Below are positions 22,567 through 39,909 of a stretch of 64,000 nucleotides of DNA, one piece after another. Source of the DNA: an uncultured Nitrososphaerota archaeon (GTDB taxonomy: Archaea > Thermoproteota > Nitrososphaeria > Nitrososphaerales > Gagatemarchaeaceae). The stretch covers positions 448,001 to 512,000 of the forward strand of contig CAWISW010000003.1 in assembly GCA_963838925.1 (NCBI GenBank). The letters are read 5' to 3'. A model generated the notes under the pieces. That model had not been told where the DNA came from and made no database searches. It saw only the letters and a list, made by a program, of their open reading frames with translations. The translations under genes were made by a program, and so were the position numbers. How positions within the stretch are numbered: the first letter of the stretch is position 1; the number at the start of each line of letters is the position of its first letter.

Positions 22567-22689
22567 ACAGGAAAGAACGAACCTCGCCGAGGGACTTTCC
22601 GTTGGCCAGGCTAGGGTCAAGGCAATCTTTGGGCGTCTAGGCGGAAGAATCGGAATCTTATTTCAGCGAAGTAGCAAGAATGAGCGAAT

Positions 22690-23123: not shown

Positions 23124-23146
23124 TTGACAATTGCCTTTAAGCGCCA

Positions 23147-24481: not shown

Positions 24482-24530
24482 GAGTGACCACTGAACAAAG
24501 CATCCATATGGATCTCGATTAAAAATCGCC

Positions 24531-24947
24531 TTAAGCAGGAGTTTCTTGAAAGGCCGAAATCGTTTGGTAAAGAAATATTACGAACCCTATGAAGATTACG
24601 ATTAAGGGAAATATGTAGTAAGAGATTGCCGGGACCGGCGGTCGAAGGATCGTAAGCAGGAAGACGAGCGCGGCTCCGAAAAACGCGGAAAAAGTGCCGG
24701 ACAATGGAATGACCATTCGCCGGAATCGTATCATGTTCTCGAAAACCAAACGGTCCGCCACGTAACCATCACGTGTCTCCTGAATCAGGCCAAACCGTAA
24801 GAGCTTTTGAACGTGATATTCCGCAACAGATGGTGAGCTGAGTCCGAGGTTTCGATGAATGTCGGAAAGACGAATCGGACCACGTCTGTAAACATGGCGA
24901 TAGACCTTGAGAGTAGTTCCCGAAATAGCATCGTTTGCCGTGGGCAA
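24531..24947 (-). CDS. wHTH regulator with two C-terminal TM helices
   Basis: GTTLKVY..LGLSSPSVAEYHVQKL..GLI; paralogue of 60227-60679. Confidence 0.8.
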   Translation of the reverse strand: MPTANDAISGTTLKVYRHVYRRGPIRLSDIHRNLGLSSPSVAEYHVQKLLRFGLIQETRDGYVADRLVFENMIRFRRMVIPLSGTFSAFFGAALVFLLTILRPPVPAISYYIFPLIVIFIGFVIFLYQTISAFQETPA

Positions 24948-25095
24948 TCATCGGGTTAATTGTCGACGCGGGTATTTTGCCTTTCGAAGAGGCGCTCGAA
25001 GTCCTCTGAAGAGAAGGAATACATAACACGTTTGAATTATTCGCGGAGAGGATTTCTAAACCATAGCAATATACTCGTCCGCGAACGTTTCTAAA

Positions 25096-25773
25096 GTGAT
25101 GTCAGAATATCGACGACAACTCCTCACTGGGGTAGTCCTAGCAATACTACTCTCGGCACTTTTTGCGTTCGAATTGGAGTCGTACTTCTCACCTGCTAAG
25201 AGTAACGAACCCTCCCTAGCCAAATCCAGTTCCATAGATACAGATTTGGGACTCAATTTCACTTTGACCGCTAAACCTTCAAGTCTTCAAGAGGGAGATA
25301 ACGTGACGATTGGGGTGTATCTCTTCAACATACTTCCTTCGACTAACAACCTTACTTCTCCGACTTCAAATCTTTATTCGCTGGGGCCGTGTCCCACGAC
25401 TCTTCCGTTTTGGTTCGAAGTTATTCAGGGAAACTATGAGGCCGATAACATGTCTCAAGGGCAGCCGCTCGCATTGTGGCAGGCATACCCTTACTGCGCA
25501 AATAGCATTCCTGTCCAGAACTACTCGTTTGAAGTGCGCAGCGATAATGTAACTGTCGCACTTGCTACCACAACTCTTGGTGAGAAGCAAGTCATTTTTT
25601 CCGAATCTGCTTCCTACATCGACAGCTATTTTGGATCATGGGGAGTGCTGACCCATCCCGACTCGCGTTTCGCGTTGTTCCAACCTGGAGAGTACACGGT
25701 AGCGGCGGGAGACTCTTGGGGGCAAGAAGACATACTACATTTCCGAGTTGTGGCTACACGAACAAGCCCGTAG
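25096..25773 (+). CDS. Membrane-anchored extracellular protein
   Basis: N-terminal TM, Ig-like beta pattern, many N-x-S/T sequons, FQPGEYTVAAGDSWGQ. Confidence 0.7.
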   Translation: MMSEYRRQLLTGVVLAILLSALFAFELESYFSPAKSNEPSLAKSSSIDTDLGLNFTLTAKPSSLQEGDNVTIGVYLFNILPSTNNLTSPTSNLYSLGPCPTTLPFWFEVIQGNYEADNMSQGQPLALWQAYPYCANSIPVQNYSFEVRSDNVTVALATTTLGEKQVIFSESASYIDSYFGSWGVLTHPDSRFALFQPGEYTVAAGDSWGQEDILHFRVVATRTSP

Positions 25774-25898
25774 CCTCACCTCAGCATCGCACTCTTCTGC
25801 TTGTTCAAGGTAATACACGAGTGGCACCGCGACAAGATTCACCAAAAGTGCGGCTCCCGATTGAGGTGTAGATAGCTAAGAACGACAAGAAGCTCGAA
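25774..25898 (+). pseudogene. tes: Degraded tes fragment
   Basis: PHLSIALFCLFKVIHEWHRDKIHQKCG(frameshift)PIEV*IAKNDKKLE aligns with PDLRIIPFCSFNVIPEWYRDKIQQKYGLPIEAWEAKNGKKLE at 41288-41413. Confidence 0.7.
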
Positions 25899-25961
25899 AG
25901 GCAATTGCCTCGAACTAAGCTGAGGGTGGGTGCAGATATCCTAGCGCAATCTTGATTTGTA

Positions 25962-27059
25962 GTGCAATCCAAGCTGAAATGCGAGTCTCACCTCTCAACT
26001 AGTCGGAATGAAGGTGTGACCAATCTCGACCAATTTGTCGTCTATGAAACCAAGGGAGGTCCTTCTCATTACCTCCGCCTACGTGAACGCCTTTACAACT
26101 TTGGAAGAGAAGACATCATTGAGGCTCGAGTAGCAAGAACTTCAGCGCCAGAGAAAGAACTCCGTCTTTACACAAGTGCAAGCTACGCAGATCCCCACCT
26201 CAACGTCTCTCATCTGAATCCAGCTCCGCGCGAGTCATTCCGAATATTGTCTCTCAGGAAATTTGGCGTACCGCATTTTGTAGCGAACTTCAACCAGCAC
26301 AAGCCGAAAGCCTTTCGAAATATCACGCTCTCCTATTCCGATGGCATAGTCAACATGAAAGTCGAGAATTTGGTCGCAGTGATCAAGAATCCCAAGCTCA
26401 GCGCTCGCGGGCAAGGACCTATTCTTGAAGGAAGCATAATAGAAGGCACAAGACGCGGGAACATCCGAATCGCCCAAGAATCCGAATCTTTCAGTCTGCA
26501 CTTCGGGGACTATTCGACCAACCATCCCCGGATAGTTCACATGAAGGCTATCGAGTCTTACATCGAGGTCGGATACGTGCAGAGTTCGCACGAGTCTGAC
26601 TATCGCACGAGACGCGTTCCTGCTGTTTCCATCGGGCCCGCGAAAGGCAAATCCGAGGACGAAGTGAAGAACAGATTCACCGAGATAGACAGCAGCAACA
26701 TGACAAAGAAGGAGATAAGGGCTTGGATTGACACTGAAGGTAACATCTACTCGAGGGGTATGGACGGTAAATCTGGCCCTCAACTGGCTGTCACTCAGAA
26801 GCACAGGGAACCGTTGGATGTCTTTGCAAGGAGCGTTGTAGGGTTGGGAGTGAGGTGCAAAGTCTCGCGGGATGGGCATGCGTGTTACGTAGCCAAAATT
26901 ACCGACACCGAAGGAGTTGCCAAGATAATCAAAGAGGTTGGGCCGTTTCGAACTCCTCAGAAATGTGAACAGGTACGTCAGTTCGAGAAGATGTTGAAAA
27001 GAGAGAGAAAGGAAAGGAGACGAGTGATAGAAAGATCGAAGGCACTGTTGGACCTGTAG
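25962..27059 (+). CDS. Free-standing LAGLIDADG endonuclease with uncharacterised N-terminal domain
   Basis: EIRAWIDTEGNI..PQLAVTQK.REPL..F..LGV..YVAKIT..KII..V.PF..K is a single-motif LAGLIDADG pattern. Confidence 0.75.
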   Translation: MQSKLKCESHLSTSRNEGVTNLDQFVVYETKGGPSHYLRLRERLYNFGREDIIEARVARTSAPEKELRLYTSASYADPHLNVSHLNPAPRESFRILSLRKFGVPHFVANFNQHKPKAFRNITLSYSDGIVNMKVENLVAVIKNPKLSARGQGPILEGSIIEGTRRGNIRIAQESESFSLHFGDYSTNHPRIVHMKAIESYIEVGYVQSSHESDYRTRRVPAVSIGPAKGKSEDEVKNRFTEIDSSNMTKKEIRAWIDTEGNIYSRGMDGKSGPQLAVTQKHREPLDVFARSVVGLGVRCKVSRDGHACYVAKITDTEGVAKIIKEVGPFRTPQKCEQVRQFEKMLKRERKERRRVIERSKALLDL

Positions 27060-27091
27060 AGTTCTCCGTGGGCATTATCTTCGTGCCAAGC

Positions 27092-27099
27092 TTATAATA
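27092..27099 (+). promoter_or_regulatory. TATA-like box supplied by island A for kleisin-KITE genes
   Basis: TTATAATA about 40 nt upstream of ATG 27139. Confidence 0.45.
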
Positions 27100-27138
27100 C
27101 AAGTCGGTAAGCGCGGCTCATCATTAGGGCGATATGAG

Positions 27139-27933
27139 ATGGCAACTCGGGAGGGAACTCCGAATAGAGAGAGTAGAAAGGACTCAAGCGACAAGAAACT
27201 TGAAGATATATTGCGCTTGATTGAATTATGCCGCAATATCCAGTCGAGCAGCGTTAACCCCTTCGAGGTGGACATCAAGGAGAAGCTCTTGGTCCTAAAG
27301 AGGCACCTGCCCGAGTGGAATGTAATTGACGTGATGCTGAAGGATTCAGAGGCGATGCAACAACTTGTTGCGATAGTAAAGTTACAAGATCTGTACATTA
27401 AACACAGGGCCTCCGCGCTCTACATCGACCCTCTGCTCCTCGAGCTCAAGATAACGCTCATCACCAAGGAGGAGCTCGCGGAGAGCTTCGCAAAGTGCTG
27501 GCACCCCATCGCGCAGCTCGACCAGCTCACCCCGCGCGGCCTCGAGAAGGCCTTCGTCTACTGGCGGGAGCTCGTACCATTCAGCGAGAGGTTCAAGGAA
27601 CAGTTCGGGAACTACGGGGAGCCGACCGGGATGATAGGGCTCGAGGAGCTCGAGTCGTTGAGCATCTTCACGAAGGAGGAGTTCCAGACCAGGATCAACG
27701 CGATCACCAAGGAACTGGTGGAGAGGTGCGACGGCAAGGAGATAGACTACCGCGGTTTCATAAAGGGGAAGGACCCCGAGGAGACGGCCTTGCGGGGATA
27801 TCTCATAGCGTTCGTGGTCACCGAGGGGAGGGCCACGCTGAGGACCGACCCGCTCACCGAGCAGATCTTCATCTCGGTGATCGAAGGGAAGCCGGACGAC
27901 GAGACGAAATCGGTGGCGATCGTAGTCAGATGA
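27139..27933 (+). CDS. Kleisin (ScpA-like) subunit; first 88 codons recoded
   Basis: VNPFEVDI (ScpA DPWDIDI-like N-terminus) and C-terminal winged helix; position between SMC-like and KITE genes. Confidence 0.7.
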   Translation: MATREGTPNRESRKDSSDKKLEDILRLIELCRNIQSSSVNPFEVDIKEKLLVLKRHLPEWNVIDVMLKDSEAMQQLVAIVKLQDLYIKHRASALYIDPLLLELKITLITKEELAESFAKCWHPIAQLDQLTPRGLEKAFVYWRELVPFSERFKEQFGNYGEPTGMIGLEELESLSIFTKEEFQTRINAITKELVERCDGKEIDYRGFIKGKDPEETALRGYLIAFVVTEGRATLRTDPLTEQIFISVIEGKPDDETKSVAIVVR

Positions 27934-28541
27934 GCGACGTAGCGAGCCCGCCCGACGCTGCCAGCCCTCCGCACGAGGCCGCCGCAGAGAGGGCATCGCT
28001 CGACCGCAAGACCAGGAAGGCCTTCCAGGTCTTGATACTCCAGCGCGGAAGAAACCCCGGCGTCAAGGGATGGGAGATGCGAAGGTACCTCGGTAAAGAC
28101 TACAAGAAGATACTAGATGTCCTTTCGAACGACCTGAAGCCCCTCGGCCTCGAGGTCCACCTGGTGCCCGGCCCGGAGGGCACCGACGACTCCACGCGCT
28201 TCCTGCTCAGGTTCAGGGACCCTCCGACTCTGACCGAGGCGGAGACCGCGGGGTTCAGGATCGACGACCTCGCTGTCCTCGCGGCCACCATAGCCCTGGT
28301 CAACTCCAAGCAGGGGAGAATCTCTAGGAAGGAGCTCGAGAGCTTCCTCAAGACAAAGTTCCCGCGCTGGAGGATAGACTACTCGATCGACAGATACATC
28401 AAGCGGGGGTACATCGACCAGGACGACAAGGACCTCGTCCGCATCGGGTGGAGGACGAGGGCAGAGATAGACGAGAGGTCGTTGATGACGCTGATACTCG
28501 CTCAGGGGACACAGTCGAAGGCCGGAAGCGGCAAACAGTAG
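27930..28541 (+). CDS. KITE (ScpB/Nse1/Nse3-like tandem winged-helix) protein
   Basis: ATGA overlap with kleisin; two wH-like halves; YIKRGYI..IGWRTRAEI. Confidence 0.7.
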   Translation: MSDVASPPDAASPPHEAAAERASLDRKTRKAFQVLILQRGRNPGVKGWEMRRYLGKDYKKILDVLSNDLKPLGLEVHLVPGPEGTDDSTRFLLRFRDPPTLTEAETAGFRIDDLAVLAATIALVNSKQGRISRKELESFLKTKFPRWRIDYSIDRYIKRGYIDQDDKDLVRIGWRTRAEIDERSLMTLILAQGTQSKAGSGKQ

Positions 28542-28583
28542 GATTACAGGCACTGCGTCAAGGAAGGATATTGCGTAATCGTC

Positions 28584-29087
28584 TTACCTTCTAGATTCGA
28601 GTTCGTGGACCTTCCCTTCGACGACCGTGAGACGCTGCGTCACGTCCATGCGCTTGTCCAAGCCGTCAACCTTCTTGTCCACGCCGTCTATCTTCTGGCC
28701 CAGGGCTTGCTCGAAGCCGTCGATTCTTTGGACAAGTTTCTGCTCAACATTATCAATCCTCTGACCGAGTTTTTGCTCCAAGCCATCAATCCTTTGACCC
28801 AGCTTTTGCTCCAAGCCGTCCACTCTCTGACCAAGCCCTTTCTCCACGCCACCAAGCCCTTTCTCCACGCCGTCGATCCGCTGACCAAGCCCTTTCTCCA
28901 CACCATCAATCCTCTGACCGAGGTTAAGGTTCACGCCTTCGATTTTTTGGTCCAATCTCCTTATCTCTGTGTGGACGACCTTGAACTCCCCATCGATTTT
29001 CGCGTTCGTCGCCTTGATCTCTCCCTTCAGCTCGCTTATCTGGGGCAGCAGCACCCTCTCAAGCCAACCGGGAATCTTCTCGGCCAT
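28584..29087 (-). CDS. Coiled-coil protein with 11-residue repeats
   Basis: LGQRIDG(V/L)E(K/Q)(G/K) repeats. Confidence 0.75.
   Translation of the reverse strand: MAEKIPGWLERVLLPQISELKGEIKATNAKIDGEFKVVHTEIRRLDQKIEGVNLNLGQRIDGVEKGLGQRIDGVEKGLGGVEKGLGQRVDGLEQKLGQRIDGLEQKLGQRIDNVEQKLVQRIDGFEQALGQKIDGVDKKVDGLDKRMDVTQRLTVVEGKVHELESRR
28690..28925 (-). repeat. Imperfect 33-bp tandem repeat with one 21-bp unit
   Basis: Recurring ACCAAGCCCTTTCTCCAC and CCATCAATCCT units. Confidence 0.8.
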
Positions 29088-29150
29088 TTCTTACTCGGGA
29101 ATACCCGCTGGTGATATTTAACCGCATATTTCGGTTCAAGCGACTTCGTG

Positions 29151-32072
29151 TCAGCTTACGAAGTACCTACGCCTCAGAGCCTCCCGCTCGCCCTCTATCA
29201 CGCAGTCGATGAGGTCTTGGCCGGTCTCCTTCCTCTTCTTCAGCAGGTTAGGGGCCTCCGAGAGCCTGATGCCCCTCCCCGCGATAACGAAGAGCGCGTC
29301 GTCCCCGAACTCGTTCTTGACCTGCGTCGACTTCTTCAACGCCTCTAGCACCTTCTGGGCCTTGCCGTGCATCTGGAGCCTACTCCTCGCCTTGAGCGTC
29401 GCGCCGAAGACCGCCTCGTAGGACTCGGTGGTGTAGCCTATCGTGTCCTTCCTCCCGCACCGGGGGCACCTCTCGGGTGAGCCGTCGCCCACCCTCCTGA
29501 GCTCGACGTACTCCCAGCAGTTGGTGCAGGCCGCGACCAGGAAGCTCTCGCGAATCCTCGCCTCGGTGGACTGGCGGATTATCGCCCTGAGCCTCTCGGG
29601 CGAGACAATCTCGCCCCTCCTGCTCACTTCCTCCAGGCCGATCCTCGCGATGGGCGAGGGCCCTGCCTCTGGCTCCAAGATCACTATGCCGATTTCCTTG
29701 CGGGCGATCTGCGAGATGATTGACTCCGCGGCCTCGGTGTCAAAGTCGTCGTGGAAGATGACGCTGAGCGCCTCGTCGTAGACGGGCGTCCCCCTCAGCG
29801 CCTCCATGAGCCCCGAGATCGAGACGCTCGCGTAGTCCGCCTCCCTCGCGATGGCTCCGCACTTCTTCGCGACGTGGATGAGGCGTCGCTTGAATATCCC
29901 CGACCGCTCCACGGCCGCCCGCGCGAGCTCCTTGATGTCCTTCCCGTAGAGGTCGCGGATGACGCTCTCCACCAGCTTGGGCGACGACTCGACCTCCAAG
30001 ATGATCCTGTAGGGGTCTTGGTGGACGGCCACCGACTGTCCCATCCGCTCGGAGATGATGTGGGCGACCACGCGGGCGAGGAGCCTGTTCACCTTGTGCC
30101 CGAACGTCGCTTGTATCACCACGAACTTATCCCATTTCTCTATGGTGATGAGCCTGTCCGAAGGAACGGCGAGGCCCAGGGACGTCTGCTCCTTCACCTC
30201 GCTCAATGACTCGAGGATCGCCCCTTCGTCCACGGGGTAGCGCTCGCGGAGGGACGCGACTACCGACTTCTCCCCTCTCCCCTCGCTGCCGAGGGCCTCT
30301 GCATACTCCCTCCTTATCGACCCGACCTCGAGGGCGACCGGGAGCGGGACGGGGATCTCGTCGCCGACCCAGCTCGGGACCGCTCCGGTCGGGTCCTCCT
30401 CTGGAGCGACGTAGACCTTGTTCTCGTATATCTCTAATATCTTCCAGCACCTCCCCGCCTCGACGAACTTCACGCCGATCTGCCCGTACTCGGACACGAA
30501 GGCCTCGTCCAGGACACCGATCGCCCGGTCGCCCTCGGCGATCACGACGTACTGCTTCTCGTCGGGGATCATCGAGAGGTTCTCGAAGTAGTATTCGAAG
30601 AGCGGCTTGAAGTCCTTGGCGCGCTTGACGATCCCGTCGTTCTCGGTGAAGAAGAGCAGGCGCGGGTACCTGTCGCGCATGTAGACCAGGTACTTGCCCA
30701 TCGTCTCGATGCTGAGGGTCGAGTACGCGTAGGTCTTCCTCAGGAGGGAGTACAGGTCGTCGAGCTTCCACGAGCTGCTCTCGATGAGGAGTCCTGCTAT
30801 CTGGTGTATCGCGGGGTCGGCGGCGTTCCGGAAGGGGAGGAGCGGCTCGAGCTCGCCGTGGAGGGATTTCCTGCAGAGGACCATGGCCTCGAGCGTGTCG
30901 TCCGAGTCCTGCGTGATTATCATCCCCTTCGATATCTGTCCTATGGAGTGGCCAGCCCTCCCGATGCGCTGGATGAGCCTCGTGACCTGACGAGGGGAGT
31001 TGTACTGTATGACGCAGTCGAGGAAGCCGATGTCGATGCCGAGCTCGAGACTGCTCGTGCAGATTACGCCGGACAGCTTCCCCTCCCTGAGGTTCCTCTC
31101 GGTCGCCTCGCGAGTGGCCCTCGACAGAGAGCTGTGGTGGATGCCTATGGGCAGCCTCTCGTTCCAGACCCTGAACCTGTTCGCGAGCGCCTCCGCCTCT
31201 GACCTGGTGTTCGTGAATATCAGCGTCGACCTGTTCTGGTCGACAGTGTCCCGAATGGTCCTGAGCCTAGCCGCCACCTCGGGGAACGTGAAGATGCTGT
31301 CGGCGAGCGCGATGTCCTCCCCCGTCGCCTTCGGCCTCACCACCTGGAGCTGGAGCATCTTCTCCACGGGCACCCTGACTATCTCGCACTCCCTTCCCTC
31401 TCCTACGAGGAACCTGGATATCGTCTCGGGGGAGCCGATCGTCGCCGAGAGCCCGATCATTTGGATCTCCTTCCCGACCACACGCTTCAGCCGCTCGAGC
31501 GCTATCGAGAGCTGGCTTCCTCGCTTGTCCTCGGCCAGCTCGTGGATCTCGTCGACGACGACCCACTTCAGCTTCATCAGACCGTCCTTTATCCTCCTTC
31601 CAGTGAGGAGTGCCTGTAGCGTCTCAGGCGTCGTGATCATTATGTCGGGCGGCACCATGCTCTGGCCTGCCCTCTCCTGAGCGCCGGTGTCGCCGTGCCT
31701 CACCCCCAGCCTGACGTCGAACCTCTTGCACCACCATTGCATCCTCTCGAGCATGTCCCTGTTGAGCGCCCTGAGCGGCGTGATGTAGAGGAGCTTGATC
31801 CCGCCCGTCCGGGCGAGGCCGTTCCTGATCATCTTGTCGAGTATGGGCAGGAACGCAGCCTCCGTCTTCCCGGTCCCCGTCGGAGCCATCAGCAGCGCGT
31901 TGCGGCCGTCCGCGACGAGGGGGACCATCTTCGACTGCGGGTCTGTGGGGTTGCTGAACCCCCTCTCCTCGAGCGCCTTCAGGAGGGGCGGGGAGAAGAG
32001 CCTCTGGAAGACGTTGCCCTGGTCACCACTTGGCTGGTTCTCGGTGAGACTCGCCTCAGGGGTGCCGGGCAA
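29151..32072 (-). CDS. lhr: Lhr-family SF2 helicase
   Basis: APTGTGKT, PLRALNRD, TTPETL, DEIH, SAT, TSSLELGIDIG, QRIGRAGH, PSW.G, C-terminal Zn finger. Confidence 0.92.
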   Translation of the reverse strand: MPGTPEASLTENQPSGDQGNVFQRLFSPPLLKALEERGFSNPTDPQSKMVPLVADGRNALLMAPTGTGKTEAAFLPILDKMIRNGLARTGGIKLLYITPLRALNRDMLERMQWWCKRFDVRLGVRHGDTGAQERAGQSMVPPDIMITTPETLQALLTGRRIKDGLMKLKWVVVDEIHELAEDKRGSQLSIALERLKRVVGKEIQMIGLSATIGSPETISRFLVGEGRECEIVRVPVEKMLQLQVVRPKATGEDIALADSIFTFPEVAARLRTIRDTVDQNRSTLIFTNTRSEAEALANRFRVWNERLPIGIHHSSLSRATREATERNLREGKLSGVICTSSLELGIDIGFLDCVIQYNSPRQVTRLIQRIGRAGHSIGQISKGMIITQDSDDTLEAMVLCRKSLHGELEPLLPFRNAADPAIHQIAGLLIESSSWKLDDLYSLLRKTYAYSTLSIETMGKYLVYMRDRYPRLLFFTENDGIVKRAKDFKPLFEYYFENLSMIPDEKQYVVIAEGDRAIGVLDEAFVSEYGQIGVKFVEAGRCWKILEIYENKVYVAPEEDPTGAVPSWVGDEIPVPLPVALEVGSIRREYAEALGSEGRGEKSVVASLRERYPVDEGAILESLSEVKEQTSLGLAVPSDRLITIEKWDKFVVIQATFGHKVNRLLARVVAHIISERMGQSVAVHQDPYRIILEVESSPKLVESVIRDLYGKDIKELARAAVERSGIFKRRLIHVAKKCGAIAREADYASVSISGLMEALRGTPVYDEALSVIFHDDFDTEAAESIISQIARKEIGIVILEPEAGPSPIARIGLEEVSRRGEIVSPERLRAIIRQSTEARIRESFLVAACTNCWEYVELRRVGDGSPERCPRCGRKDTIGYTTESYEAVFGATLKARSRLQMHGKAQKVLEALKKSTQVKNEFGDDALFVIAGRGIRLSEAPNLLKKRKETGQDLIDCVIEGEREALRRRYFVS

Positions 32073-32125
32073 CTGAAAACTTCAACCGCCTTCTCCGTCG
32101 CTTACCTAACTACGTTTCCCTTAGG

Positions 32126-33823
32126 TCAGAAGGCCGAAGTCTCGCCAGGCACCATGCAGACGGCCCCCTTTGACGAGGACGTGACGAGCTCCGCGTACTT
32201 TGCAAAGACTCCGTGCTTGTACTTGATCGGTCGGGGCTTCCAGGTCTTCCTCCTCTCCGCTAGCTCTTGGTCGGAGACCTCGACGTTGAGAGACCTCTTG
32301 GCGACGTCGATGGAGATGATGTCGCCGTCCTTCAGGAGTCCTATTGTTCCGCCGACCTGTGCTTCAGGCGCGATGTGCCCGATCATGAATCCGTGGGTGG
32401 CTCCGGAGAACCTCCCGTCGGTAAGAAGCGCTACCGAGTCCTTCAAACCCTGTCCCACCAACGCGGCGGTGACGACGAGCATCTCGCGCATGCCTGGCCC
32501 GCCCTTCGGCCCCTCGTAGCGGACGACGACAACGTCGCCCGGGTTGATCTTCTTCTCGATTATCGCTTGACGCGCATCCTCCTCCCTCTCGAAGACTCTC
32601 GCCGGTCCCCGATGGGCGTTCTTCGTGGAACCTGCGGTCTTGAGCACGCCGCCCTCGGTGGCCAGGTTCCCTCTGAGGACGGCGAACCCCCCGGACTTTC
32701 TAACCGGGTTCGATATGGGGTGGATGACGTCCTGGCCGGATGGGAGCTTGACGCCATTCAGCCTCTCCGCGAGGCTCTCGCCCGTGACGGTCCGCGCGTC
32801 GCCGTGGAGCAAGCCTGCATCGAGGAGCTGCCTCATGACCAGCTTGACGCCCCCCACTCTGTCGACGTCCGACATCACGTACTTGCCTGCCGGGCGCAGG
32901 TCCGCGAGCTCTGGCACGTTGACGCCGACCCTTTCGATGTCTTCGTAGGTCAGCTTCACTCCTGCCTCATATGCGATTGCTAGCAGGTGGAGCACCGCGT
33001 TGGTGGAACCGCCCATTCCTGCGACAACGGCGATTGCGTTCTCGAACGCGTTCTTCGTAAGGATGTCGCGCGGGCGAGTGTTGCTATCGAGCGCCTTCAT
33101 CACGCCCCATCCGCTCTCGTAAGCAATCTTCTTCCTCTGCTCGCTCGGTGCCACCGGAGCGGCGCTGTCGGGGACGGTGAGTCCGATCGCTTCGAGGGCT
33201 GATGCCATCGTGTTTGCGGTGAACATCCCGCCGCAGGCACCATAGGTGGGGCAGGCGTTGCACTCCAGGTCCTTGAGCTGTTGGACCGTCATTGTCCCCC
33301 TCGAAACCTGCCCCATCGCCTCGAAGACGTCTTGGATCGTGACCTCCTTCCCGTTGAACTCTCCGGGCGGGATGCTCCCACCGTAGAGGTAGACTCCGGG
33401 TATGTTGACGCGCGCCAAGGCCATCGCGGAGGCTGGCTGGGTCTTGTCGCAGCCGCCTATCGTAACCAGCCCGTCGAACTGATATCCGGCAGCACAGAGC
33501 TCAATCGAGTCGGCGATGACCTCGCGGCTGATTAGCGAGGCCTTCATCCCCTCGTGCCCCATCGCCATTGCGTCGTTGATTGCGATGCTATTGAACTCCA
33601 AGGGCGTGCCTCCTGCGTCTCTCACGCCCCTCTTCACCTCGTTGGCAAGTTCCCTTAGGTTATAGTTGCAGGGCTGGGCCTCGATCCATGTGTTAGCGAT
33701 GCCGATGATGGGCTTGTCAAAGTCCTCGTCGGTCAAGCCGATGGCGCGCAGCATCGCCCGCTGGGGGGTCCTCTCGATGCCCGCGGTGAGTTTGGCCGGG
33801 TGCCCCTTTGTTACACTTTGCAA
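32126..33823 (-). CDS. ilvD: Dihydroxy-acid dehydratase
   Basis: PCN, GCDKT.P, CGGMFTANTM, GGSTNAVLHL, GPKGGPGMREM, TDGRFSG. Confidence 0.97.
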   Translation of the reverse strand: MQSVTKGHPAKLTAGIERTPQRAMLRAIGLTDEDFDKPIIGIANTWIEAQPCNYNLRELANEVKRGVRDAGGTPLEFNSIAINDAMAMGHEGMKASLISREVIADSIELCAAGYQFDGLVTIGGCDKTQPASAMALARVNIPGVYLYGGSIPPGEFNGKEVTIQDVFEAMGQVSRGTMTVQQLKDLECNACPTYGACGGMFTANTMASALEAIGLTVPDSAAPVAPSEQRKKIAYESGWGVMKALDSNTRPRDILTKNAFENAIAVVAGMGGSTNAVLHLLAIAYEAGVKLTYEDIERVGVNVPELADLRPAGKYVMSDVDRVGGVKLVMRQLLDAGLLHGDARTVTGESLAERLNGVKLPSGQDVIHPISNPVRKSGGFAVLRGNLATEGGVLKTAGSTKNAHRGPARVFEREEDARQAIIEKKINPGDVVVVRYEGPKGGPGMREMLVVTAALVGQGLKDSVALLTDGRFSGATHGFMIGHIAPEAQVGGTIGLLKDGDIISIDVAKRSLNVEVSDQELAERRKTWKPRPIKYKHGVFAKYAELVTSSSKGAVCMVPGETSAF

Positions 33824-33854
33824 TAGAATCTGACCTGAAGCCGGCTCCGGAGTT

Positions 33855-34250
33855 TTATAAGCGTAATTGCGCGACGATGGCCAGTTCGGCAGAAGACCTG
33901 AACAGGTTGGCCATCACCGGCTCCAGTGAGCAAGTTACCGGGTTGACCTTCAGACGCAGCGTCTCCAACGTGGTCACTCCGAGCAGGAGTTCGTCTCCCG
34001 GCCCCACCATTACGGGAATCGCTCTTCTGGATGACCCATATTCGACTCTGGCGTCAGCGAGGCCGGCCTCCTTGACACTGCCGTCTGCGAGCTTGACGCG
34101 GATTACCTCGTTGGGAACGATTCCTAACCTTCTGGCGAGCGAAGGCGAAATCTTCGTGTAGAGGGCGCCGGTGTCAACCAGCATCTCGACATCCTCGTTG
34201 CCCTTCTCGCCTTGCAAGCGCACAGTCGCCCAAGTCTCGCCCATCTTCAT
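33855..34250 (-). CDS. Clan AA (retropepsin-like) aspartic protease
   Basis: LVDTGA, LADG, LLGVTTLE.L.L.VNP. Confidence 0.85.
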   Translation of the reverse strand: MKMGETWATVRLQGEKGNEDVEMLVDTGALYTKISPSLARRLGIVPNEVIRVKLADGSVKEAGLADARVEYGSSRRAIPVMVGPGDELLLGVTTLETLRLKVNPVTCSLEPVMANLFRSSAELAIVAQLRL

Positions 34251-34369
34251 TGGTCACCAGTGGAGACAGTCCGCAGATAAATATTAACGCCAATGAGTCG
34301 CGTCAGAGCCAAGTCGCCAGCCATCTCCCAAACTTATATCATGTGGCGCGGACGGCGCCTCCGGAAAAC

Positions 34370-35371
34370 ATGGCAAGGATGTGGCACGACGACGACGTCA
34401 GTTTGGGGCCGATAAAGGGCGAAACGATCGCTGTCATCGGCTACGGTATCCAAGGAGCGGCCCAGGCGAGCAACCTGAGGGACTCAGGGCTAAAGGTGGT
34501 CGTGGGGCTGCGCGAGGGAGGGAAGAGCTGGGCCAAGGCCAAGAAGGAGGGCCACAAGGTCATGACCGTCCCCGACGCGGTGAAGGCGGCGGATTTGGTC
34601 CATGTGCTGATTCCTGATATGCAACAAGCCCGCACCTTCAAGGAAGAGATTCGTCCGTATCTGAAGAAGGACATGGCTCTCTCCTTCTCGCATGGCGCAG
34701 CAATCCATTGGAAGTGGATAGTTCCCCCAAAAAACGTCGACGTAATCATGCTCGCTCCAAAAGCACCAGGGCAGAGAGTGAGAGAGCTTTACCTTGAAAA
34801 CTTTGGCACACCGGCGCTCGTTGCGGTCTACCAAGACGCAACTGGAAGAGCTTGGGACAGAATACTGGGGATGGCGAAGGGCGTCGGGACGACGAGGGCT
34901 GGCGTTCTGGAGACGACCTTCCGGGAGGAGACCGAGACGGATTGGTTCGGAGAACAAGTCGATCTCTGCGGCGGGTCGCACCGGATGATCTTGAGCGCAT
35001 TCGAGACTTTGGTCGAAGCAGGTTATTCCCCTGAAGGGGCTTACTTCGAAGTCCTGCACGAACTCAAGCTCATCGTGGACTTGATGCAAAAATACGGGAT
35101 TGCAGGCATGTATCGCAGAGTTAGCGAAACCGCGAGATATGGTGGTCTGACTAGGGGGCAAGTTGCCATCGGACCCGAGGTCAAGAAGAACATGAAGAAG
35201 GTCCTCAAGGAGATACAGAGCGGCAAGTTCGCGAAGGAATGGGTCAGCGTCTACGAGAAGGAGGGGGAGAAGAGCTTCGGCAAGTACATGGCTGAATTGG
35301 ACAAACACCAAATCGAGGTCGTGGGCAGGAAGCTGCGGAAGATGATGTGGCCCAACGACCAAGTGACGTAA
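34370..35371 (+). CDS. ilvC: Ketol-acid reductoisomerase; mosaic, recoded from about 34592
   Basis: IGYGIQG..QA.NLRDSG, LIPD, FSHG, APKAPG, ETETDWFGEQ, YFEVLHELKLIVDL, SETARYG; TATA-like CTTATAT upstream. Confidence 0.96.
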   Translation: MARMWHDDDVSLGPIKGETIAVIGYGIQGAAQASNLRDSGLKVVVGLREGGKSWAKAKKEGHKVMTVPDAVKAADLVHVLIPDMQQARTFKEEIRPYLKKDMALSFSHGAAIHWKWIVPPKNVDVIMLAPKAPGQRVRELYLENFGTPALVAVYQDATGRAWDRILGMAKGVGTTRAGVLETTFREETETDWFGEQVDLCGGSHRMILSAFETLVEAGYSPEGAYFEVLHELKLIVDLMQKYGIAGMYRRVSETARYGGLTRGQVAIGPEVKKNMKKVLKEIQSGKFAKEWVSVYEKEGEKSFGKYMAELDKHQIEVVGRKLRKMMWPNDQVT

Positions 35372-35401
35372 TTCTTCAGAAGCTCTCTAGCCAAAGACGC
35401 G

Positions 35402-37057
35402 CTATTCCTTTGGCCACACTTTTCGAAGGTGTAGCTCGCCTGTCGAGTTCGCACAATCCCAATCGAGTAAGGCCGCATAGGCCCCCTTGACCTTTCGAGT
35501 TTCCGGCCCAATATCGTAATTCTTGTACTGCCCCAACTGGATGCTTGCTTGTTTGAAGGCCGGTTCTAGGTAAGTCCACCACTTGTGCTCGAAGAAATAC
35601 AAGTCGCTCGAGGATTCTCGCCGCATCAAGCTGTCTGGACCAGGATACGTCGACCCCATCTGCCATTGGCCTTCTGAGCTGGGATGTCTCCGCACCTCTA
35701 TCCAGCCAGCATGAGACAAAATAGCGGGGTTAATCTCCTCGGCCACCTTGCCTTTCTCAGCGATTATTTCGTATTTGCTTTCGGCATGCGAAAGACGGGA
35801 GTTTACGTGATTCTGCACCGACGAATCCACCTCAAACGAAAAGCGATTCTCCGTCCCCTCTTCCTTCGAAAGCAGCCTCACCTTGTCGATAATCAGGCCA
35901 GTCTTGAACTGCTCAATTTCCTGACGAAGAGAGGCTCTCGCCGCAGTCACTTCTCTTTCCTTGGGGACGAAGACAAACTTCAAACGATCTCGAGTTGCGA
36001 TGAATCTGCTGATTTTTCCGGTCCCGTCATACGCTGCCCTCGAATGTTCGCCATCGAACCAGAACCTGAATTGCCTTTTTCCCTCTTGAAACCGTGCAAC
36101 CAGAAGTACTTCGAGGCTGTAAGAATCCAGATGAGAATCTTTGAAGGGGAAAAAGTGGCCATCGACCTTTAGGCCCAACGTATTTTCTCGGAAGCTCAGT
36201 CTAGCATTTTTCATGTCTTCCTGTCTATGACTATTGAAGTCTTTGATGAACTGTTCTTGGGAATATGCCCTGACAGTCAGCAGTTCAAACAAATCCCCCT
36301 GCTTTCCCCCGAGCTTGCCTACACGGAGGTGAACAATTTTGCTCTCTCTATTGAGCTGCATTTCCCCGAAGACTTTCCTTGTCAGGTTCTCAGACGCGGA
36401 AAGGCTTCGTATTCCCAGTTCTAGTATTCCTCTCCTGTCTTTCGAAAAGCGCTCGTGAGGCAAGCCGGCCGATTCCAACGCAGCTTGTCTAAAGGTCAGC
36501 TGAGGCCAACCACGGATGGTCTCAACTCTGAATGACTTTCTTTGCTCGATGGAGATGAGTACGATCTTGTAGCTTTCGCGAGCCTTGAGATTCTGCCTGT
36601 ACTCGAAGGGAGCATACAAGAAGATACATTTTCTCTTTGCTCCGATGTGCATCGCATCGAAGCTCCCGACGCCTTCGATTCTACCCTTGATGCTGTATAC
36701 CCTGCCCACCCGTAGATGGAAACCAGCTGCTTTCTCGAACGCAGACTGCAATATTCGAAACCTGAAATTTCCGTCAACAGTTGCCATTCTAGATGCTCTG
36801 GCAGTAAAGATTCCAAGGTATTGGTCTCTGCTCTTTGAAGTGCTTCCGACGGCGATAGCGGATTCATGCTCAGGGGTGTGCCTACTCATTCCTTCATCTG
36901 AATCAGGCGCGGATTTCACAGCCGCAGATTGGGATCCAGTGTCGGGGCGAACCGAAGAAATCGAGGGTTCGACGGGAGGGACCGGAGACAGCGCAGCATC
37001 TGAGACTCGTATTCCCAACTTTGGAGTCGCAGTTATGGACGAGATAACATCGGCCAT
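35402..37057 (-). CDS. Putative PD-(D/E)XK endonuclease with N-terminal domain shared with the LAGLIDADG protein
   Basis: KGKVAEE..GPDSL..YFFEHKW..A..QLGQY catalytic pattern; true start may be downstream of 37057. Confidence 0.68.
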   Translation of the reverse strand: MADVISSITATPKLGIRVSDAALSPVPPVEPSISSVRPDTGSQSAAVKSAPDSDEGMSRHTPEHESAIAVGSTSKSRDQYLGIFTARASRMATVDGNFRFRILQSAFEKAAGFHLRVGRVYSIKGRIEGVGSFDAMHIGAKRKCIFLYAPFEYRQNLKARESYKIVLISIEQRKSFRVETIRGWPQLTFRQAALESAGLPHERFSKDRRGILELGIRSLSASENLTRKVFGEMQLNRESKIVHLRVGKLGGKQGDLFELLTVRAYSQEQFIKDFNSHRQEDMKNARLSFRENTLGLKVDGHFFPFKDSHLDSYSLEVLLVARFQEGKRQFRFWFDGEHSRAAYDGTGKISRFIATRDRLKFVFVPKEREVTAARASLRQEIEQFKTGLIIDKVRLLSKEEGTENRFSFEVDSSVQNHVNSRLSHAESKYEIIAEKGKVAEEINPAILSHAGWIEVRRHPSSEGQWQMGSTYPGPDSLMRRESSSDLYFFEHKWWTYLEPAFKQASIQLGQYKNYDIGPETRKVKGAYAALLDWDCANSTGELHLRKVWPKE

Positions 37058-37203
37058 CGTAACGGGGTAACGGAGACAGGGCGGGGTAGAAGGAAAACGG
37101 AGGTGAGGCAGGAAGGAGGATAGGAGAACACAACGGGGCAGTGAAGGTCGGAGACGAAAAATGAACGTGAGATGATACGTTACCTTCGCATAAAAGCATA
37201 TGT

Positions 37204-37315
37204 TTGACTAGTCTCCACTTAACGCAACGTCAACAATCGCGTTGACATCAGAGAGTCTCATCGTGTCAAATGTCTGATAGTCAATTCGCAAAATCATGTC
37301 AAGTAGATAGTTGAC
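37204..37315. promoter_or_regulatory. GTCAA-N8-TTGAC palindrome array
   Basis: Full sites at 37229-37246 and 37298-37315; half sites at 37204, 37265 and 37280. Confidence 0.5.
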
Positions 37316-37423
37316 TCTGGGAAAAGCGAATCTTGCAATGAATTGCTATTCTTGGAACTAGAATTTCCAGCTCTATGATTGGCTAAAAGCCGTTTGTGTG
37401 GACCTCGCTCTCATGACGACTCA

Positions 37424-37470
37424 TAGCAAAGAGGAGGAATTCCGCAGGTAGCCGATTATGGGGACCAAGA
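37424..37470 (+). pseudogene. tes: Heavily degraded tes 3'-terminal remnant
   Basis: GAGGAATTCCGCAGGTAGCCGATT versus GAGGAAGTCCACATCCAGCCGATT (41489-41512), 19/24 identical; the following sequence resembles 22574-22600. Confidence 0.45.
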
Positions 37471-37557
37471 GAACAAGCATTCGCCCCGGGTGATTTCTTG
37501 AGGGTAGAGGATATTGAGGGGAAACAATTCGCCAATAGGAGAGAAGAATCGGCGCAA

Positions 37558-37990
37558 TTGCCAGATTAGTTAGATAAGGCATAAATAATCGCGACTACGT
37601 TAATGCAAATAGGTCTCATGACTATTGGCAATCTCGTGCCAATGACGTTTTCCTACTCCGCATGGGGCACAGCGGATGAAGATCGAAAGAACAGAGGAAA
37701 GCGAAGGTCGCACATCGAGGTTCAGGCATCGATTCTCAGGGCGCTCGCTTCCGAGTATCTCACGATAAACCAGCTTGCAATCCGCGTGAACCTGAACAGG
37801 GTTCTCGCCAAGACCTACGTAAAAGAGCTGTCACAGAAAGGACGGATCGAGAGCAAGAAGATGAAAGGGCTGGAGAGATACTCCGCCACGCAGAGCGGAG
37901 TCGCCTGGCTGAAGCGCTTCGAGACCTTGGTCCGTGATTAGAGATACGGATTCTAGTTACCGGATGATAGTTTCTGCCTGCTTTAACTAG
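37558..37990 (+). repeat. Approx. 430-bp wHTH module, copy 2
   Basis: Aligns with 22690-23123. Confidence 0.9.
37618..37941 (+). CDS. Archaeal winged-helix transcription regulator
   Basis: Near-identical core to 22751-23089 (SEYLTINQLAIRVNLNRVLAK). Confidence 0.8.
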   Translation: MTIGNLVPMTFSYSAWGTADEDRKNRGKRRSHIEVQASILRALASEYLTINQLAIRVNLNRVLAKTYVKELSQKGRIESKKMKGLERYSATQSGVAWLKRFETLVRD

Positions 37991-38029
37991 GCGCGCTGAA
38001 ATCTATACGTCTGAGTATGTGACTGCTTA

Positions 38030-39760: not shown

Positions 39761-39909
39761 GAAGTCATTGATTGATGAATGGACGACCTGGATGCCCAGG
39801 CAACCGATGCGGGTGGCATTTCGGATTCGGTCGAAGATCCTTCAATATCACTTCAGCAAAGTCCCAGTGCATCTCTTATTAGAAACCTGAGCCCGTCTTC
39901 TATCTTGGG

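Follow-up and report, generated by a model that had tools for sequence, protein, structure and literature searches.

Two genes of a soil archaeon, here called A and B, encode proteins in which homologous all-beta modules precede nuclease heads of unrelated fold. We consider it highly probable that A and B are old paralogues from a small, previously unannotated nuclease family, whose members share this module and have exchanged their heads. The hallmark of the family is a module of about 160-190 amino acids, in which a small RIFT-like barrel leads into another beta subdomain that has a single helix. Judging by their sequences, most members appear to be PD-(D/E)XK-headed and a minority LAGLIDADG-headed, the latter of at least three kinds with the A type commonest. 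Within the searches made, the family is confined to one Nitrososphaerota (Thaumarchaeota) family known from metagenome-assembled genomes. A wider proposal would add that A is a homing-type cassette and that the module is the DNA-targeting part; for this package as a whole the prospects seem to us slightly better than even.

The genome (G000) measures 1.84 Mb and is 87% complete; within it A and B are the sole relatives of each other. The window is the whole stretch of DNA analysed, 64,000 nucleotides long, and its features are collected in Table 1.

Table 1. Features of the A and B loci, in window positions
Feature	Position	Strand	Basis
Island of low GC, about 4.7 kb, separating smc from scpA	22459..27189	+	GC, empty sister sites
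Left junction, original scpA 5' segment GACAAGAAGCTCGAGGAC	22441..22458	+	7 nt past smc stop
Third motif copy GACAAGAAGCTCGA	25884..25897	+	64 nt before A, where a decayed gene fragment ends
Gene A	25962..27059	+	ORF, GTG start, 365 aa, beta-module and single LAGLIDADG domain
A shared module, aa 22-222	26025..26627	+	hhalign to B family, AF2 secondary structure
A LAGLIDADG head, aa 240-365	26679..27056	+	VIA-align, Foldseek, invariant columns
TATA-like box (27088-27103) and new scpA ATG (27139), inside A cassette	27088..27141	+	sequence
Right junction, recoded scpA 5' segment GACAAGAAACTTGAAGAT	27190..27207	+	junction alignments
Island after ilvC, about 6.2 kb	35372..41568		comparison with sister genomes, Pfam of ORFs
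Gene B	35402..37057	-	ORF, ATG start, 551 aa
B nuclease head, aa 388-551	35405..35896	-	alignments and fold matches
B shared module, aa 208-369	35951..36436	-	hhalign
B extra barrel, aa ~78-174	36536..36823	-	VIA-align Z 9.7 (2d9r), 9.2 (2glw, PhS018)
Leader, first ~43-45 codons of B	36923..37057	-	DNA 85-93% identical in four sister species
Leader upstream region	37058..37213	-	DNA alignment of 7 loci
ilvC 3' end remnant	41569..41879	+	direct repeat of 35063-35362, 78%

A shared module with exchanged nuclease heads

The first-pass annotation had claimed from three blocks aligned by eye that A and B share a region. BLASTP gives one significant HSP (A79-165 with B243-329, 22/87 identical, E 2e-8), and hhalign of the A family (15 sequences) against the B family (7) gives 96.7% and E 3.5e-10 over 157 columns (A49-211, B208-369); all three blocks lie inside this alignment, in identical register. 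HMMs built separately from the two families pick the same 27-28 frames in relatives. The shared domain was said to be N-terminal. This holds for A, with the small barrel at residues ~25-100 and the second subdomain at ~103-220, but not for B, where a 45-aa leader, a disordered linker and an extra barrel precede the module and the PD-(D/E)XK-like head follows it. The internal position in B is a point that the annotation missed, as are the strain-variable islands and the HerA-ATPase cassettes described below.

An extra, similar-looking module had also been described in B. The likeness stands at the level of fold, where A 21-100 (Z 6.7 for each) matches the same barrels, 2d9r and 2glw, as the extra barrel does, but fails in a profile comparison of extra barrel and module (probability 1.3%, non-significant). 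Relatives of B have zero to two copies of the extra barrel, and small barrels of the PhS018/PG0164 type occur one to three times per protein. Since the Z scores of the module itself reach no more than 6.7, within the range that the tool states to be unspecific or noise, the assignment of its fold and of a DNA-binding role is weak. The check proposed for a B3/EcoRII-N fold recovered a single row, FUS3 B3 at Z 5.0, and sequence searches found no DNA-binding family in the module. The modelled resemblance of its first subdomain and of the extra barrel to the RIFT-type barrels PhS018/PG0164 is the sole hint of DNA recognition. We take the strand-helix motif at the start of the module, for instance LRVPKTVLEANGF, to resemble AbrB-type DNA binders.

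The C-termini are unrelated, as had been claimed: that of A has a LAGLIDADG fold and that of B a restriction-endonuclease-like fold, and both heads are predicted to be active nucleases. Gene A has 19 relatives, 42-87% identical except for the genome's own shorter call P0005 (100%). In its AF2 model (mean pLDDT 81) residues 240-357 are closest in fold to PI-PfuI (VIA-align Z 11.8), I-CreI (10.7) and I-TnaI (10.1), within about 15 LAGLIDADG structures matched at Z 11.8-8; WhiA is also among the fold matches (Z 10.4 and 8.1), and Foldseek places I-CreI among the top matches. The motif IRAWIDTEG, from which this head had been named, is invariant in 15/15 relatives, and so are E259 and 25 further positions in 15 sequences with identity down to 42%. 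Against Pfam LAGLIDADG_3, A reaches 16.8 bits, under the cutoff of 22.5, and the family member P0107 clears it at 27.6 bits.

Apart from P0020, the genome's own shorter call, B has six relatives (33-83% identical) that share 58% or more of its length. Its 551-aa AF2 model has a mean pLDDT of 65.5 and is good for 390-551; residues ~429-551 match restriction-endonuclease-fold proteins only, at VIA-align Z 5.5-6.5 (LHK-Exo 6.5, Hjc 5.9, HamA 5.6, I-Ssp6803I 5.5; also RPA0323). The head residues E440, H458-P459, G473-P-D475, E490-H-K492 and Q507...Y511 agree with the PD-(D/E)XK reading of the first pass. E440 and E490 are conserved in 18/18 aligned heads and D475 in 17/18; of the 18, 15 have K and three have R at position 492, and Q507 is mostly kept. 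The pattern is E...D...ExK, followed in about half of the sequences by Q(x3)Y, which is presumably RecB-like. Searches of Pfam, NCBIfam, PADLOC and PDB families gave no sequence match to the B head.

In an exhaustive search the module profile found 174 clusters among 1.84 billion. Among the 150 of these that were listed, 99 have B-type heads, 17 A-type LAGLIDADG heads and 34 neither, in keeping with the interchangeable heads that had been supposed. A listing of further C-terminal domains, which the annotation had recommended, adds two more LAGLIDADG kinds in three further listed clusters: P0155 and P0161, together with locus L048, have a second LAGLIDADG-motif head and a wHTH, and P0148 has a third kind. 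Separate wHTH/HTH domains follow the head in all three clusters, and the P0155 head shows homology with each of the two units of leader protein P0035 (E 8e-42 and 3e-33). Several swaps are visible on the module tree (129 rows, quick search, unrooted, with SH-aLRT as the only support), on which the A-type label needs at least three changes forced by well-supported branches. The wHTH-type LAGLIDADG heads form one clade (support 100) and arise separately from the A type; P0148, nested in a PD-(D/E)XK clade (support 99), has a separate origin. Branches with support 99 set A and B apart.

Insertion sites of A and B

A lies in an island of GC 0.49-0.53, against about 0.60-0.63 nearby, which also holds a wHTH gene copy, four unannotated ORFs and a decayed gene fragment. 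Six of the seven sister genomes fetched have smc directly abutting scpA, with no cassette. In the seventh, G007, an A homologue (46% amino acid identity) is all that separates the two genes, its cassette lying about 36 nt deeper in scpA than that of G000. Full-length A-type genes are present in 3/23 genomes of the genus, each immediately upstream of scpA. An 18-nt scpA segment is duplicated, one copy on each side of the island. The right copy, beyond which scpA runs on as in sister genomes, differs from the left copy, and likewise from 6/6 empty sites, at four synonymous third positions, about the expectation for six codons at 80% nucleotide identity. The 15-nt core of the segment, AAGAAGCTCGAGGAC, is identical in all six empty sites and the left copy and altered in 3/3 working copies beside A, these seven unchanged and three changed copies being from related genomes and non-independent. 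The same 15-nt string recurs in an unrelated multi-copy gene, in some 20 of its copies, so that A would cut its own genome if this string were the entire target.

We propose the third copy of the motif as the left border of an A cassette of ~1.3 kb within the scpA 5' end. The cassette includes the TATA-like box, a putative scpA promoter by its sequence, and the new ATG, in a region conserved between the G000 and G020 cassettes. Homing of A does not account for the larger part of the island, 22459-25897. One environmental contig, of a related organism, passes straight from 22415 to 27188, skipping 4772 bases (weak evidence).

A is, in our judgement, probably a homing-type cassette, that is, a free-standing endonuclease gene placed in the first codons of scpA. 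In genomes lacking the cassette, a homodimer of its product would cut the smc|scpA junction where it is still uninterrupted, and repair would copy the cassette into the cut allele. Alleles that already carry the cassette would be protected, their site being split and their working copy recoded. The essential scpA, which serves chromosome maintenance, would stay intact because a TATA-like box and a start codon for it come with the cassette.

The island of B is missing between ilvC and the downstream genes in six of the seven sister genomes fetched and present in G020. With B and its leader it holds a wHTH gene, a gene for an ice-binding-like protein, a 428-aa ORF and a member of a small multi-copy family. 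The ilvC remnant at its end is 90.6% and 89.7% identical to ilvC of G018 and G022, respectively; for the working ilvC the figure is 75-77%. The leader is also found in a fifth sister species (DNA 73% identical). Across these species it is joined to different cargo, and it is common to otherwise unrelated LAGLIDADG-type genes of the same genus. Upstream of it a conserved block (37213-37155, with TATA-like GCTTTTATG and CATCTCACGTTCAT) is followed by a pyrimidine-rich spacer of variable length and then by GTTACCCCGTTACG before the ATG of B; the block is a putative promoter. We read B as a solitary PD-(D/E)XK-headed member that lost HerA-type company and gained the promoter and 43-codon leader common to LAGLIDADG genes of the genus.

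The islands might have moved otherwise, by recombination between homologous stretches, short or long, or through an unseen integrase, with A and B as mere cargo. The 3.4 kb of A's island that are unrelated to A would suit this, bordered as they are by halves of the multi-copy gene that shares the 15-nt string with scpA, and so would the 300-nt ilvC repeat at B's island and the blocks common to both islands, a wHTH gene (82-86% identity) among them. We nevertheless find it unlikely, given that eight island ORFs scanned include no integrase or transposase family and that the G007 insertion is the A gene alone. Less likely still is that A is an inactive, domesticated or decaying LAGLIDADG gene, kept since loss of the cassette would remove the promoter and start codon of scpA. 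Some regulators have a LAGLIDADG fold, WhiA being a case in point, and retention through embedded promoters is described for T4 in passages of PMC2988022. Against such decay stand the invariant metal-binding E259, with the 25 other invariant positions, and an ORF uninterrupted in G000, G020 and G007, which argue for purifying selection on an enzyme. A homing-type cassette remains the reading that we prefer for A.

HerA neighbours and the role of the module

HerA ATPases pair with nucleases, as in HerA-NurA and the Sir2-HerA and DUF4297-HerA defence systems. A HerA-like ATPase gene stands immediately upstream of the B-type gene in 16/26 loci and a conserved gene of ~190-220 aa immediately downstream in 13/26, the trios being mostly co-oriented with overlapping ends. 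Pfam DUF87/HerA is over cutoff in all three ATPase neighbours tested, and PADLOC HerA models match the neighbours with E 1e-15 to 1e-20. Outside the window the B-type gene is usually the middle one of a three-gene cassette led by the ATPase. This association points to a multi-subunit machine, for defence or DNA-end processing, over homing; the module could dock on it.

If so, the B-type proteins, B included, would be effector nucleases acting against viruses or plasmids, or in end processing like that of HerA-NurA, with the module docking on the ATPase ring or sensing the substrate and B a decaying or re-deployed orphan. We regard this as a serious possibility, though the lesser one. The sporadic, multi-copy distribution of B-type genes, with highly divergent copies, speaks for it, as does HamA of the Hachiman defence system among the fold matches of B. 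However, neither B-type proteins nor their downstream neighbours match any PADLOC model, and the module is kept where the sequence fetched shows no HerA neighbour: in the window's B, the leader-bearing L006 and L008, all A-type genes, L046, L061 and L065. The only HerA-like gene of G000 is distant (31-34%) and on another contig, and the module was repeatedly joined to LAGLIDADG heads, which belong to homing enzymes or their derivatives and not to defence effectors. The module might also be an oligomerisation, regulatory or partner-binding domain, kept with any nuclease head, that has no part in DNA recognition. LAGLIDADG catalytic domains usually recognise DNA themselves, the wHTH/HTH domains of P0155, P0161 and P0148 would be redundant if the module targeted DNA, and the HerA association and the failure to detect a DNA-binding family in the module fit as well. 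This seems somewhat unlikely to us, as solitary genes keep the module, its barrel type recurs within proteins, and its strand-helix motif has an AbrB-like look. Free-standing homing enzymes, moreover, often have accessory DNA-binding domains, according to passages of PMC2988022. That the module may be a DNA-targeting part common to different heads is the reading that we hold, tentatively and at a little under even chances.

Comparison with known systems

The barrels PhS018/PG0164 resemble B 78-174 (Z 9.7/9.2, rmsd 2.4/2.1, 82-83 residues) and A 21-100 (Z 6.7) in fold, but they have no sequence similarity to them and are stand-alone proteins of unknown function; PhS018 is named a RIFT protein in part of PMC11258233. 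The B head has the fold class and the E...D...ExK pattern of lambda-exonuclease/RecB-like enzymes, Hjc and I-Ssp6803I. It has no sequence-level match to them, and only B's family has the N-terminal barrels and the module. B-type cassettes resemble the HerA-NurA, Sir2-HerA and DUF4297-HerA pairs in having the HerA-family ATPase gene right upstream of the nuclease gene, and differ in their third conserved small gene and in that the window's B is without an ATPase. Judged by PADLOC or Pfam, the B-type nuclease is not itself NurA, Sir2 or DUF4297.

I-CreI, I-TnaI, I-MsoI and I-Vdi141I share with A one LAGLIDADG domain of ~110 aa and the same fold (Z 8.7-10.7), and in both a conserved acidic residue ends the motif helix. 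Introns encode these enzymes, which have nothing beyond the domain, whereas A carries 220 additional aa at its N-terminus and lies outside any intron; no Rfam family was found in the window. Thaumarchaeota LAGLIDADG genes are reported within rRNA group I introns in part of PMC6125680, and the portions of literature searched mention free-standing LAGLIDADG only in organelle-genome papers.

A further close parallel is with the free-standing homing endonucleases of T-even phages, the seg/mob genes of 'intronless homing'. Those are GIY-YIG or HNH genes of phages, while A is a LAGLIDADG gene with an unannotated beta-module in an archaeal chromosome. According to passages of PMC2988022, free-standing endonuclease genes of T4 sit between conserved genes and embed promoters for the downstream gene. 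As far as that account goes, seg/mob genes and A are alike in standing beside conserved genes, co-oriented with them and missing in relatives, in carrying expression signals for a downstream essential gene, and in joining a catalytic domain to a separate, presumed DNA-binding region.

The shared module and its heads

Two genes of the window, which we call A and B, were proposed in a first-pass annotation to share an N-terminal domain and to differ in their C-terminal nuclease domains. Both are present as the reading frames named there (see the table), in DNA whose G+C content is 0.49-0.53 against 0.60-0.63 in the surroundings. The source genome (1.84 Mb in three contigs, 87% complete) contains no other relative of either: the single relative of A is B, and vice versa. 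We gathered 19 relatives of A, of which 15 were aligned, and 7 full-length relatives of B, all of which were aligned. Relatives with a name, two records from a profile search with alignment A1, are metagenome-assembled Nitrososphaerota/Thaumarchaeota. The sole significant BLASTP segment joins A79-165 to B243-329 (25% identity, E 2e-8). Comparison of the two family profiles covers 157 columns, A49-211 against B208-369, with a probability of 96.7% and E 3.5e-10, which establishes the homology, and the three blocks originally aligned by hand all lie inside this alignment. HMMs built separately from the module of A and from that of B also find the same frames in the loci that we fetched. Together with the BLASTP and profile matches, this rules out chance similarity.

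The assignment of the heads is borne out for A (LAGLIDADG) and reasonable for B (PD-(D/E)XK-like). In an AlphaFold model of A (mean pLDDT 81), residues 25-220 are all beta, and a disordered linker leads on to an alpha/beta domain at 249-362. The head, at pLDDT 80-92 over 250-360 (AF2), has the alpha-beta-beta-alpha-beta-beta-alpha order of the LAGLIDADG fold. With VIA-align it matches PI-PfuI (1dq3, Z 11.8), I-CreI (1af5, 10.7), I-TnaI (5gkk, 10.1) and I-DmoI (9.3); 96-105 residues align on the first three at an rmsd of 2.4-3.1, and Foldseek concurs. There is a single motif helix with a conserved terminal acidic residue: all nine residues of IRAWIDTEG, including E259, are invariant in 15 of 15 sequences. 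The Pfam model LAGLIDADG_3 gives A 16.8 bits, below its curated threshold of 22.5; among relatives, P0107 exceeds the threshold (27.6 bits), and P0010, P0014 and P0019 carry precomputed PF14528 matches. A complex prediction for a dimer of the A head scores 0.39 against a mark of 0.42 and speaks neither for nor against such a dimer.

The model of B has a mean pLDDT of 65.5 (43.7-55.2 in the other four models) and is good over 390-551. Structural matches of its head (429-551, taken from the whole-protein model) all have the restriction-endonuclease fold, with Z 5.5-6.5: LHK-Exo and RPA0323 (6.5), tRNA-splicing endonuclease (6.4), Hjc (5.9 and 5.6), HamA (5.6) and I-Ssp6803I (5.5). The order of elements (H428-449, E452-457, E476-480, E486-493, H497-509, E523-532) is consistent with an alpha-beta-beta-beta-alpha-beta core. 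Among 18 diverse heads of this type, E440 and E490 occur in all 18, D475 in 17, and position 492 is K in 15 and R in three; Q507 is retained in most, and about half have a Y four positions after it. The putative catalytic residues, a D...(D/E)xK motif with an acidic residue upstream, are invariant in the seven close relatives too. No curated PD-(D/E)XK family in Pfam, NCBIfam, PADLOC or the PDB profiles matches the B head. Such Z values would not convince alone; combined with the motif, they make a PD-(D/E)XK-type head a reasonable reading of the model.

What the module itself resembles is less distinct. The extra barrel of B (78-174) matches PG0164 (2d9r) at Z 9.7 and PhS018 (2glw) at 9.2, above the noise range of the tool, and residues 21-100 of A match the same two barrels at Z 6.7, within that range. 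PhS018 is termed a RIFT-fold protein in PMC11258233. The second half of the module matches generic small barrels only (for example 5hal, Z 5.8 with A 98-193 and 5.1 with B 264-350). Of the folds suggested beforehand, an AbrB-like barrel is thus loosely favoured for the first subdomain through its small-barrel matches, and B3/EcoRII-N is not. The extra barrel was also considered as a sequence homologue of the module and rejected, the profile comparison being not significant (probability 1.3%).

A family with exchanged heads

Known families account for little of this. A and B have no match above threshold in Pfam or NCBIfam; two sets of ten diverse members match no known family above threshold, save LAGLIDADG_3 on P0107; 18 heads and 26 modules yield no recurrent known-family match, and ten of the module frames from fetched loci have no match in Pfam. 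PDB sequence and profile searches with four alignments (A2, A3, A4 and A8) and two relatives (P0155 and P0148) gave no usable match, and A1 found I-DmoI alone, at E 0.19. A protein atlas searched with the module had no usable match, a viral structure library matched the LAGLIDADG part alone (best E 1.8e-3) and not the module, and PHROGs matched neither A, B nor three B-type proteins. Nothing like this family turned up in the paper library searched. Since the family escapes sequence searches of Pfam, NCBIfam, PADLOC and the PDB, it provides an annotation for some 170 protein clusters from soil archaea that have received little study.

The family-A profile matches in 38 of 97 genomes of the taxonomic family, spanning 8 of 10 genera, and its module part and LAGLIDADG part often match separate genes. 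We fetched 26 module-bearing loci with 28 module frames, 21 of which have a B-type head and zero to two extra barrels. At a limit of E <= 0.001, a profile of 26 modules (A3) searched against 1.84 billion cluster representatives finds 174 proteins, between 78 and 1341 aa long; at E <= 1e-10 there are 154. Among the best 150 of the 174, the head is B-type in 99, A-type LAGLIDADG in 17 and neither in 34, many of which are fragments.

There are further C-terminal domains. Among these 34, P0155 and P0161 (and, besides them, locus L048) have a different LAGLIDADG-type motif followed by a winged helix, and P0148 has a third LAGLIDADG-type motif. Each of the two repeats of P0035 shows homology to the head of P0155 (E 8e-42 and 3e-33). 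That head also matches phrog_5046, labelled 'HNH endonuclease', at E 1.2e-13; the matching region (residues 244-354) contains the LAGLIDADG-type motif DRAWLAGLIIGEGSFF despite that label. A phage protein labelled HNH also matched the LAGLIDADG fold of A, and both families are probably mislabelled.

A quick, unrooted tree of 129 modules (SH-aLRT support; the best-scoring module represents two-module proteins) places A and B in opposite halves. A belongs to a 13-member A-type clade (support 99) amid PD-(D/E)XK-headed lineages. Because A-type sequences also occur outside this clade, supported branches force at least three changes of head. The winged-helix LAGLIDADG type forms one clade (100), and P0148 is nested in a PD-(D/E)XK clade (99). 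Architecture counts and tree together support the idea, put forward in the first-pass annotation, of interchangeable heads on a common module.

A in scpA and B after ilvC

Features of the window discussed in the text
Feature	Position	Strand	Remarks
smc, end	22433
Split multi-copy gene, two halves	22440-22560 and 25778-25897
18-mer, left copy	22441-22458
HTH_45 winged-helix gene, one copy per island	22745-23071 and 37603-37941	+	79% aa identity
Third motif copy	25884-25897
Gene A	25962-27059	+	365 aa
18-mer, second copy	27190-27207
scpA, resumption	27208
ORF with seven 33-nt tandem repeats	28584-29087	-	11-residue units, e.g. GQRIDGVEKGL
Repeat partner of ilvC 3' fragment	35063-35362
Gene B	35402-37057	-	551 aa
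Promoter-like block, spacer and 43-codon leader, fused in frame to unrelated nuclease genes	36923-37213	-	loci L006-L010, L014
Protein with ice-binding-like domain, in B island	38030-39760	+	576 aa; Pfam E 2.7e-38
Six ~45-nt repeats, possibly beta-propeller-like	39910-41196		126-282-nt spacing
Multi-copy small gene, window copy	41093-41686	+
ilvC 3' fragment	41569-41879		310 nt

Of the 22 other genus genomes, 20 keep the scpA-scpB flank, but only G020 has the DNA of A. Full-length A-type genes occur in three of 23 genus genomes (the window's own, G020 and G007), each directly upstream of scpA. Among seven sister loci fetched, the SMC gene abuts scpA in six (G022, G018, G009, G008, G017 and G015), and in G007 an A homologue alone (46% identical) lies between the two. 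Such presence/absence polymorphism at one conserved site is a trait of homing endonuclease genes. Next to the A homologue of G007 (contig C1, 1296431-1298438), the match to the SMC gene is broken into two pieces that overlap and lie in separate frames (427 and 359 aa), possibly a frameshift or a split.

At the empty sites, the smc stop is followed by 7 nt, GACAAGAAGCTCGAGGAC and ATCCTC..., the scpA codons being D-K-K-L-E-D-I-L. In the window, the 18-mer GACAAGAAGCTCGAGGAC is followed by foreign DNA, and a second copy, GACAAGAAACTTGAAGAT, by the remainder of scpA. The second copy has four differences from the first, at consecutive third positions and all synonymous; the working copy of G020 has one of these four. 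A 15-nt core is preserved in the left copy and in six of six empty sites; three of three working copies that adjoin A have it altered. Indirectly, the split site and the 1-4 synonymous differences of its working copy, in G020 and in the window's genome, would fit an occupied allele that is immune to an enzyme cutting the empty one. The contrast is no more than suggestive: these are related genomes, and at 80% identity many third positions are expected to differ. Between the stop of A and the junction, G000 (the window's genome) and G020 have in common a TATA-like box and a new ATG, which gives scpA a different 17-residue start.

The third copy of the motif is the end of a decayed fragment of a multi-copy gene, intact copies of which read ...KNGKKLEDGLYRG..., and the other half of the split gene lies at the left junction. 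The two halves border 3.4 kb of island beside A. Within the genus this family of small genes (...KIQQKYGLPIEAWEAKNGKKLEDGLYRGTLRRG.HHAGCGC...) numbers about 20 copies (loci L081-L100); it has a 15-nt string in common with the 5' end of scpA. The present arrangement may have arisen in two events: arrival of an A cassette (about 25898-27189), and later recombination of the 3.4-kb segment into the left copy of the motif. The island form is present in public soil runs, where contigs run across both junctions at full identity. The sole candidate for an empty site within the population is a single contig joining 22415 to 27188 (163 nt, depth 2.7), from a ~90%-similar organism. None of the public runs listed with sequence is an RNA run. 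On this evidence, A is probably, though by no means surely, a free-standing LAGLIDADG homing-type cassette in scpA. As a candidate case of intronless homing on the chromosome of an archaeon, it has the advantage that empty and occupied sites are both available.

For B, the ilvD-ilvC synteny holds across the genus, and besides the window B follows ilvC only in G020. Homologues of the window from 42490 onward lie within 0.3-1.8 kb of ilvC in six of seven fetched loci and 6.2-7.6 kb from it in G000 and G020. The island ends, 6.2 kb downstream of the working ilvC, in an ilvC 3' fragment. This fragment is ~90% identical to ilvC of G018 and G022, to which the working ilvC is 75-77% identical; since the fragment is the closer of the two, part of ilvC seems, from the sequences, to have been replaced along with the insertion. 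No recombinase family turned up in those island ORFs that were scanned. The islands of A and B have the HTH_45 gene (82-86% identity) and other blocks in common. The 5' ~100 nt of the tandem-repeat ORF is multi-copy in the genus.

The leader of B and the HerA ATPases

The first ~43 codons of B also open ten proteins that differ in their remaining parts, with 75-98% amino acid identity over the leader (the search covered proteins of 303-965 aa). One is B-type, and nine have HTH and/or LAGLIDADG-type motifs, two with precomputed LAGLIDADG_3. Of the 22 other genus genomes, four match the leader DNA at 85-93% identity and a fifth does so at 73%. A search of 38 genomes from beyond the genus did not find it, and one genome has two copies with different cargo. 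Conservation covers a TATA-like block, a pyrimidine-rich spacer whose length varies greatly, GTTACCCYGTTACG-ATG and ~130 coding nt, and stops sharply after GGATCC.

A protein under purifying selection does not fit the codon pattern of the leader: variable columns number 8, 14 and 12 at codon positions 1, 2 and 3, without third-position bias, and pairs of leaders differ by 4-5 synonymous against 4-9 non-synonymous codon changes each, all of these being small numbers. There is no sign of a structured RNA either: the fold is no stabler than shuffles (z +0.95), the covariation term is 0.34, 2 of 30 pairs are compensatory, and no Rfam family matches the window or any of six leader loci. The winged-helix gene next to B was considered as a travelling regulator and is absent beside the leader in ten other loci. 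Our guess is that the leader is spread by recombination as an expression cassette shared among selfish nuclease genes.

B itself can be read in two ways. Clustering of neighbours across the 26 loci shows that 16 of them have a large gene next to the module gene on its upstream side, and that 13 have a gene of ~190-220 aa next to it downstream, mostly in the same orientation. The upstream gene encodes a HerA-family ATPase (Pfam DUF87 above threshold in three of three; E values from 1e-15 to 1e-20 with the HerA models of PADLOC), and the downstream gene has no match. Three-gene cassettes of HerA-like ATPase, nuclease with barrel, module and PD-(D/E)XK head, and ~200-aa protein are seen in L045, L049, L050, L055, L057, L059, L060, L062, L064, L066 and other loci; PADLOC did not match the cassette as a system. 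These counts place the PD-(D/E)XK-headed class mostly within the cassette, making B an orphan of that class: in the window B has neither a HerA-like neighbour nor the downstream ~200-aa gene, and its genome has only a distant HerA-like homologue elsewhere, on contig C1. The HerA association weakens the case for homing by B. We read B as a solitary, putative PD-(D/E)XK nuclease, for which a homing-like role and descent from a HerA system are about evenly balanced. The HerA cassettes may hold a new nuclease partner of that ATPase family.

The usual view is that LAGLIDADG enzymes locate their long targets through the catalytic domain. An extra module found with LAGLIDADG heads as well as with PD-(D/E)XK heads suggests a separable part for targeting or docking, which is a goal of genome engineers. 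The module may dock on the HerA ATPase. A bolder suggestion, which we consider rather unlikely, is that the module is a self-contained, sequence-specific DNA-targeting domain of an undescribed kind, plugged at least five times into PD-(D/E)XK and three LAGLIDADG types and into HerA machines, with the promoter-leader as a second exchangeable layer in this genus. If true, archaea would possess a natural 'mix-and-match' kit for selfish nucleases. A parallel from phage can be drawn for the A cassette: its TATA-like box and new ATG resemble the embedded promoters of the free-standing endonuclease genes of T4, as these are described in PMC2988022.
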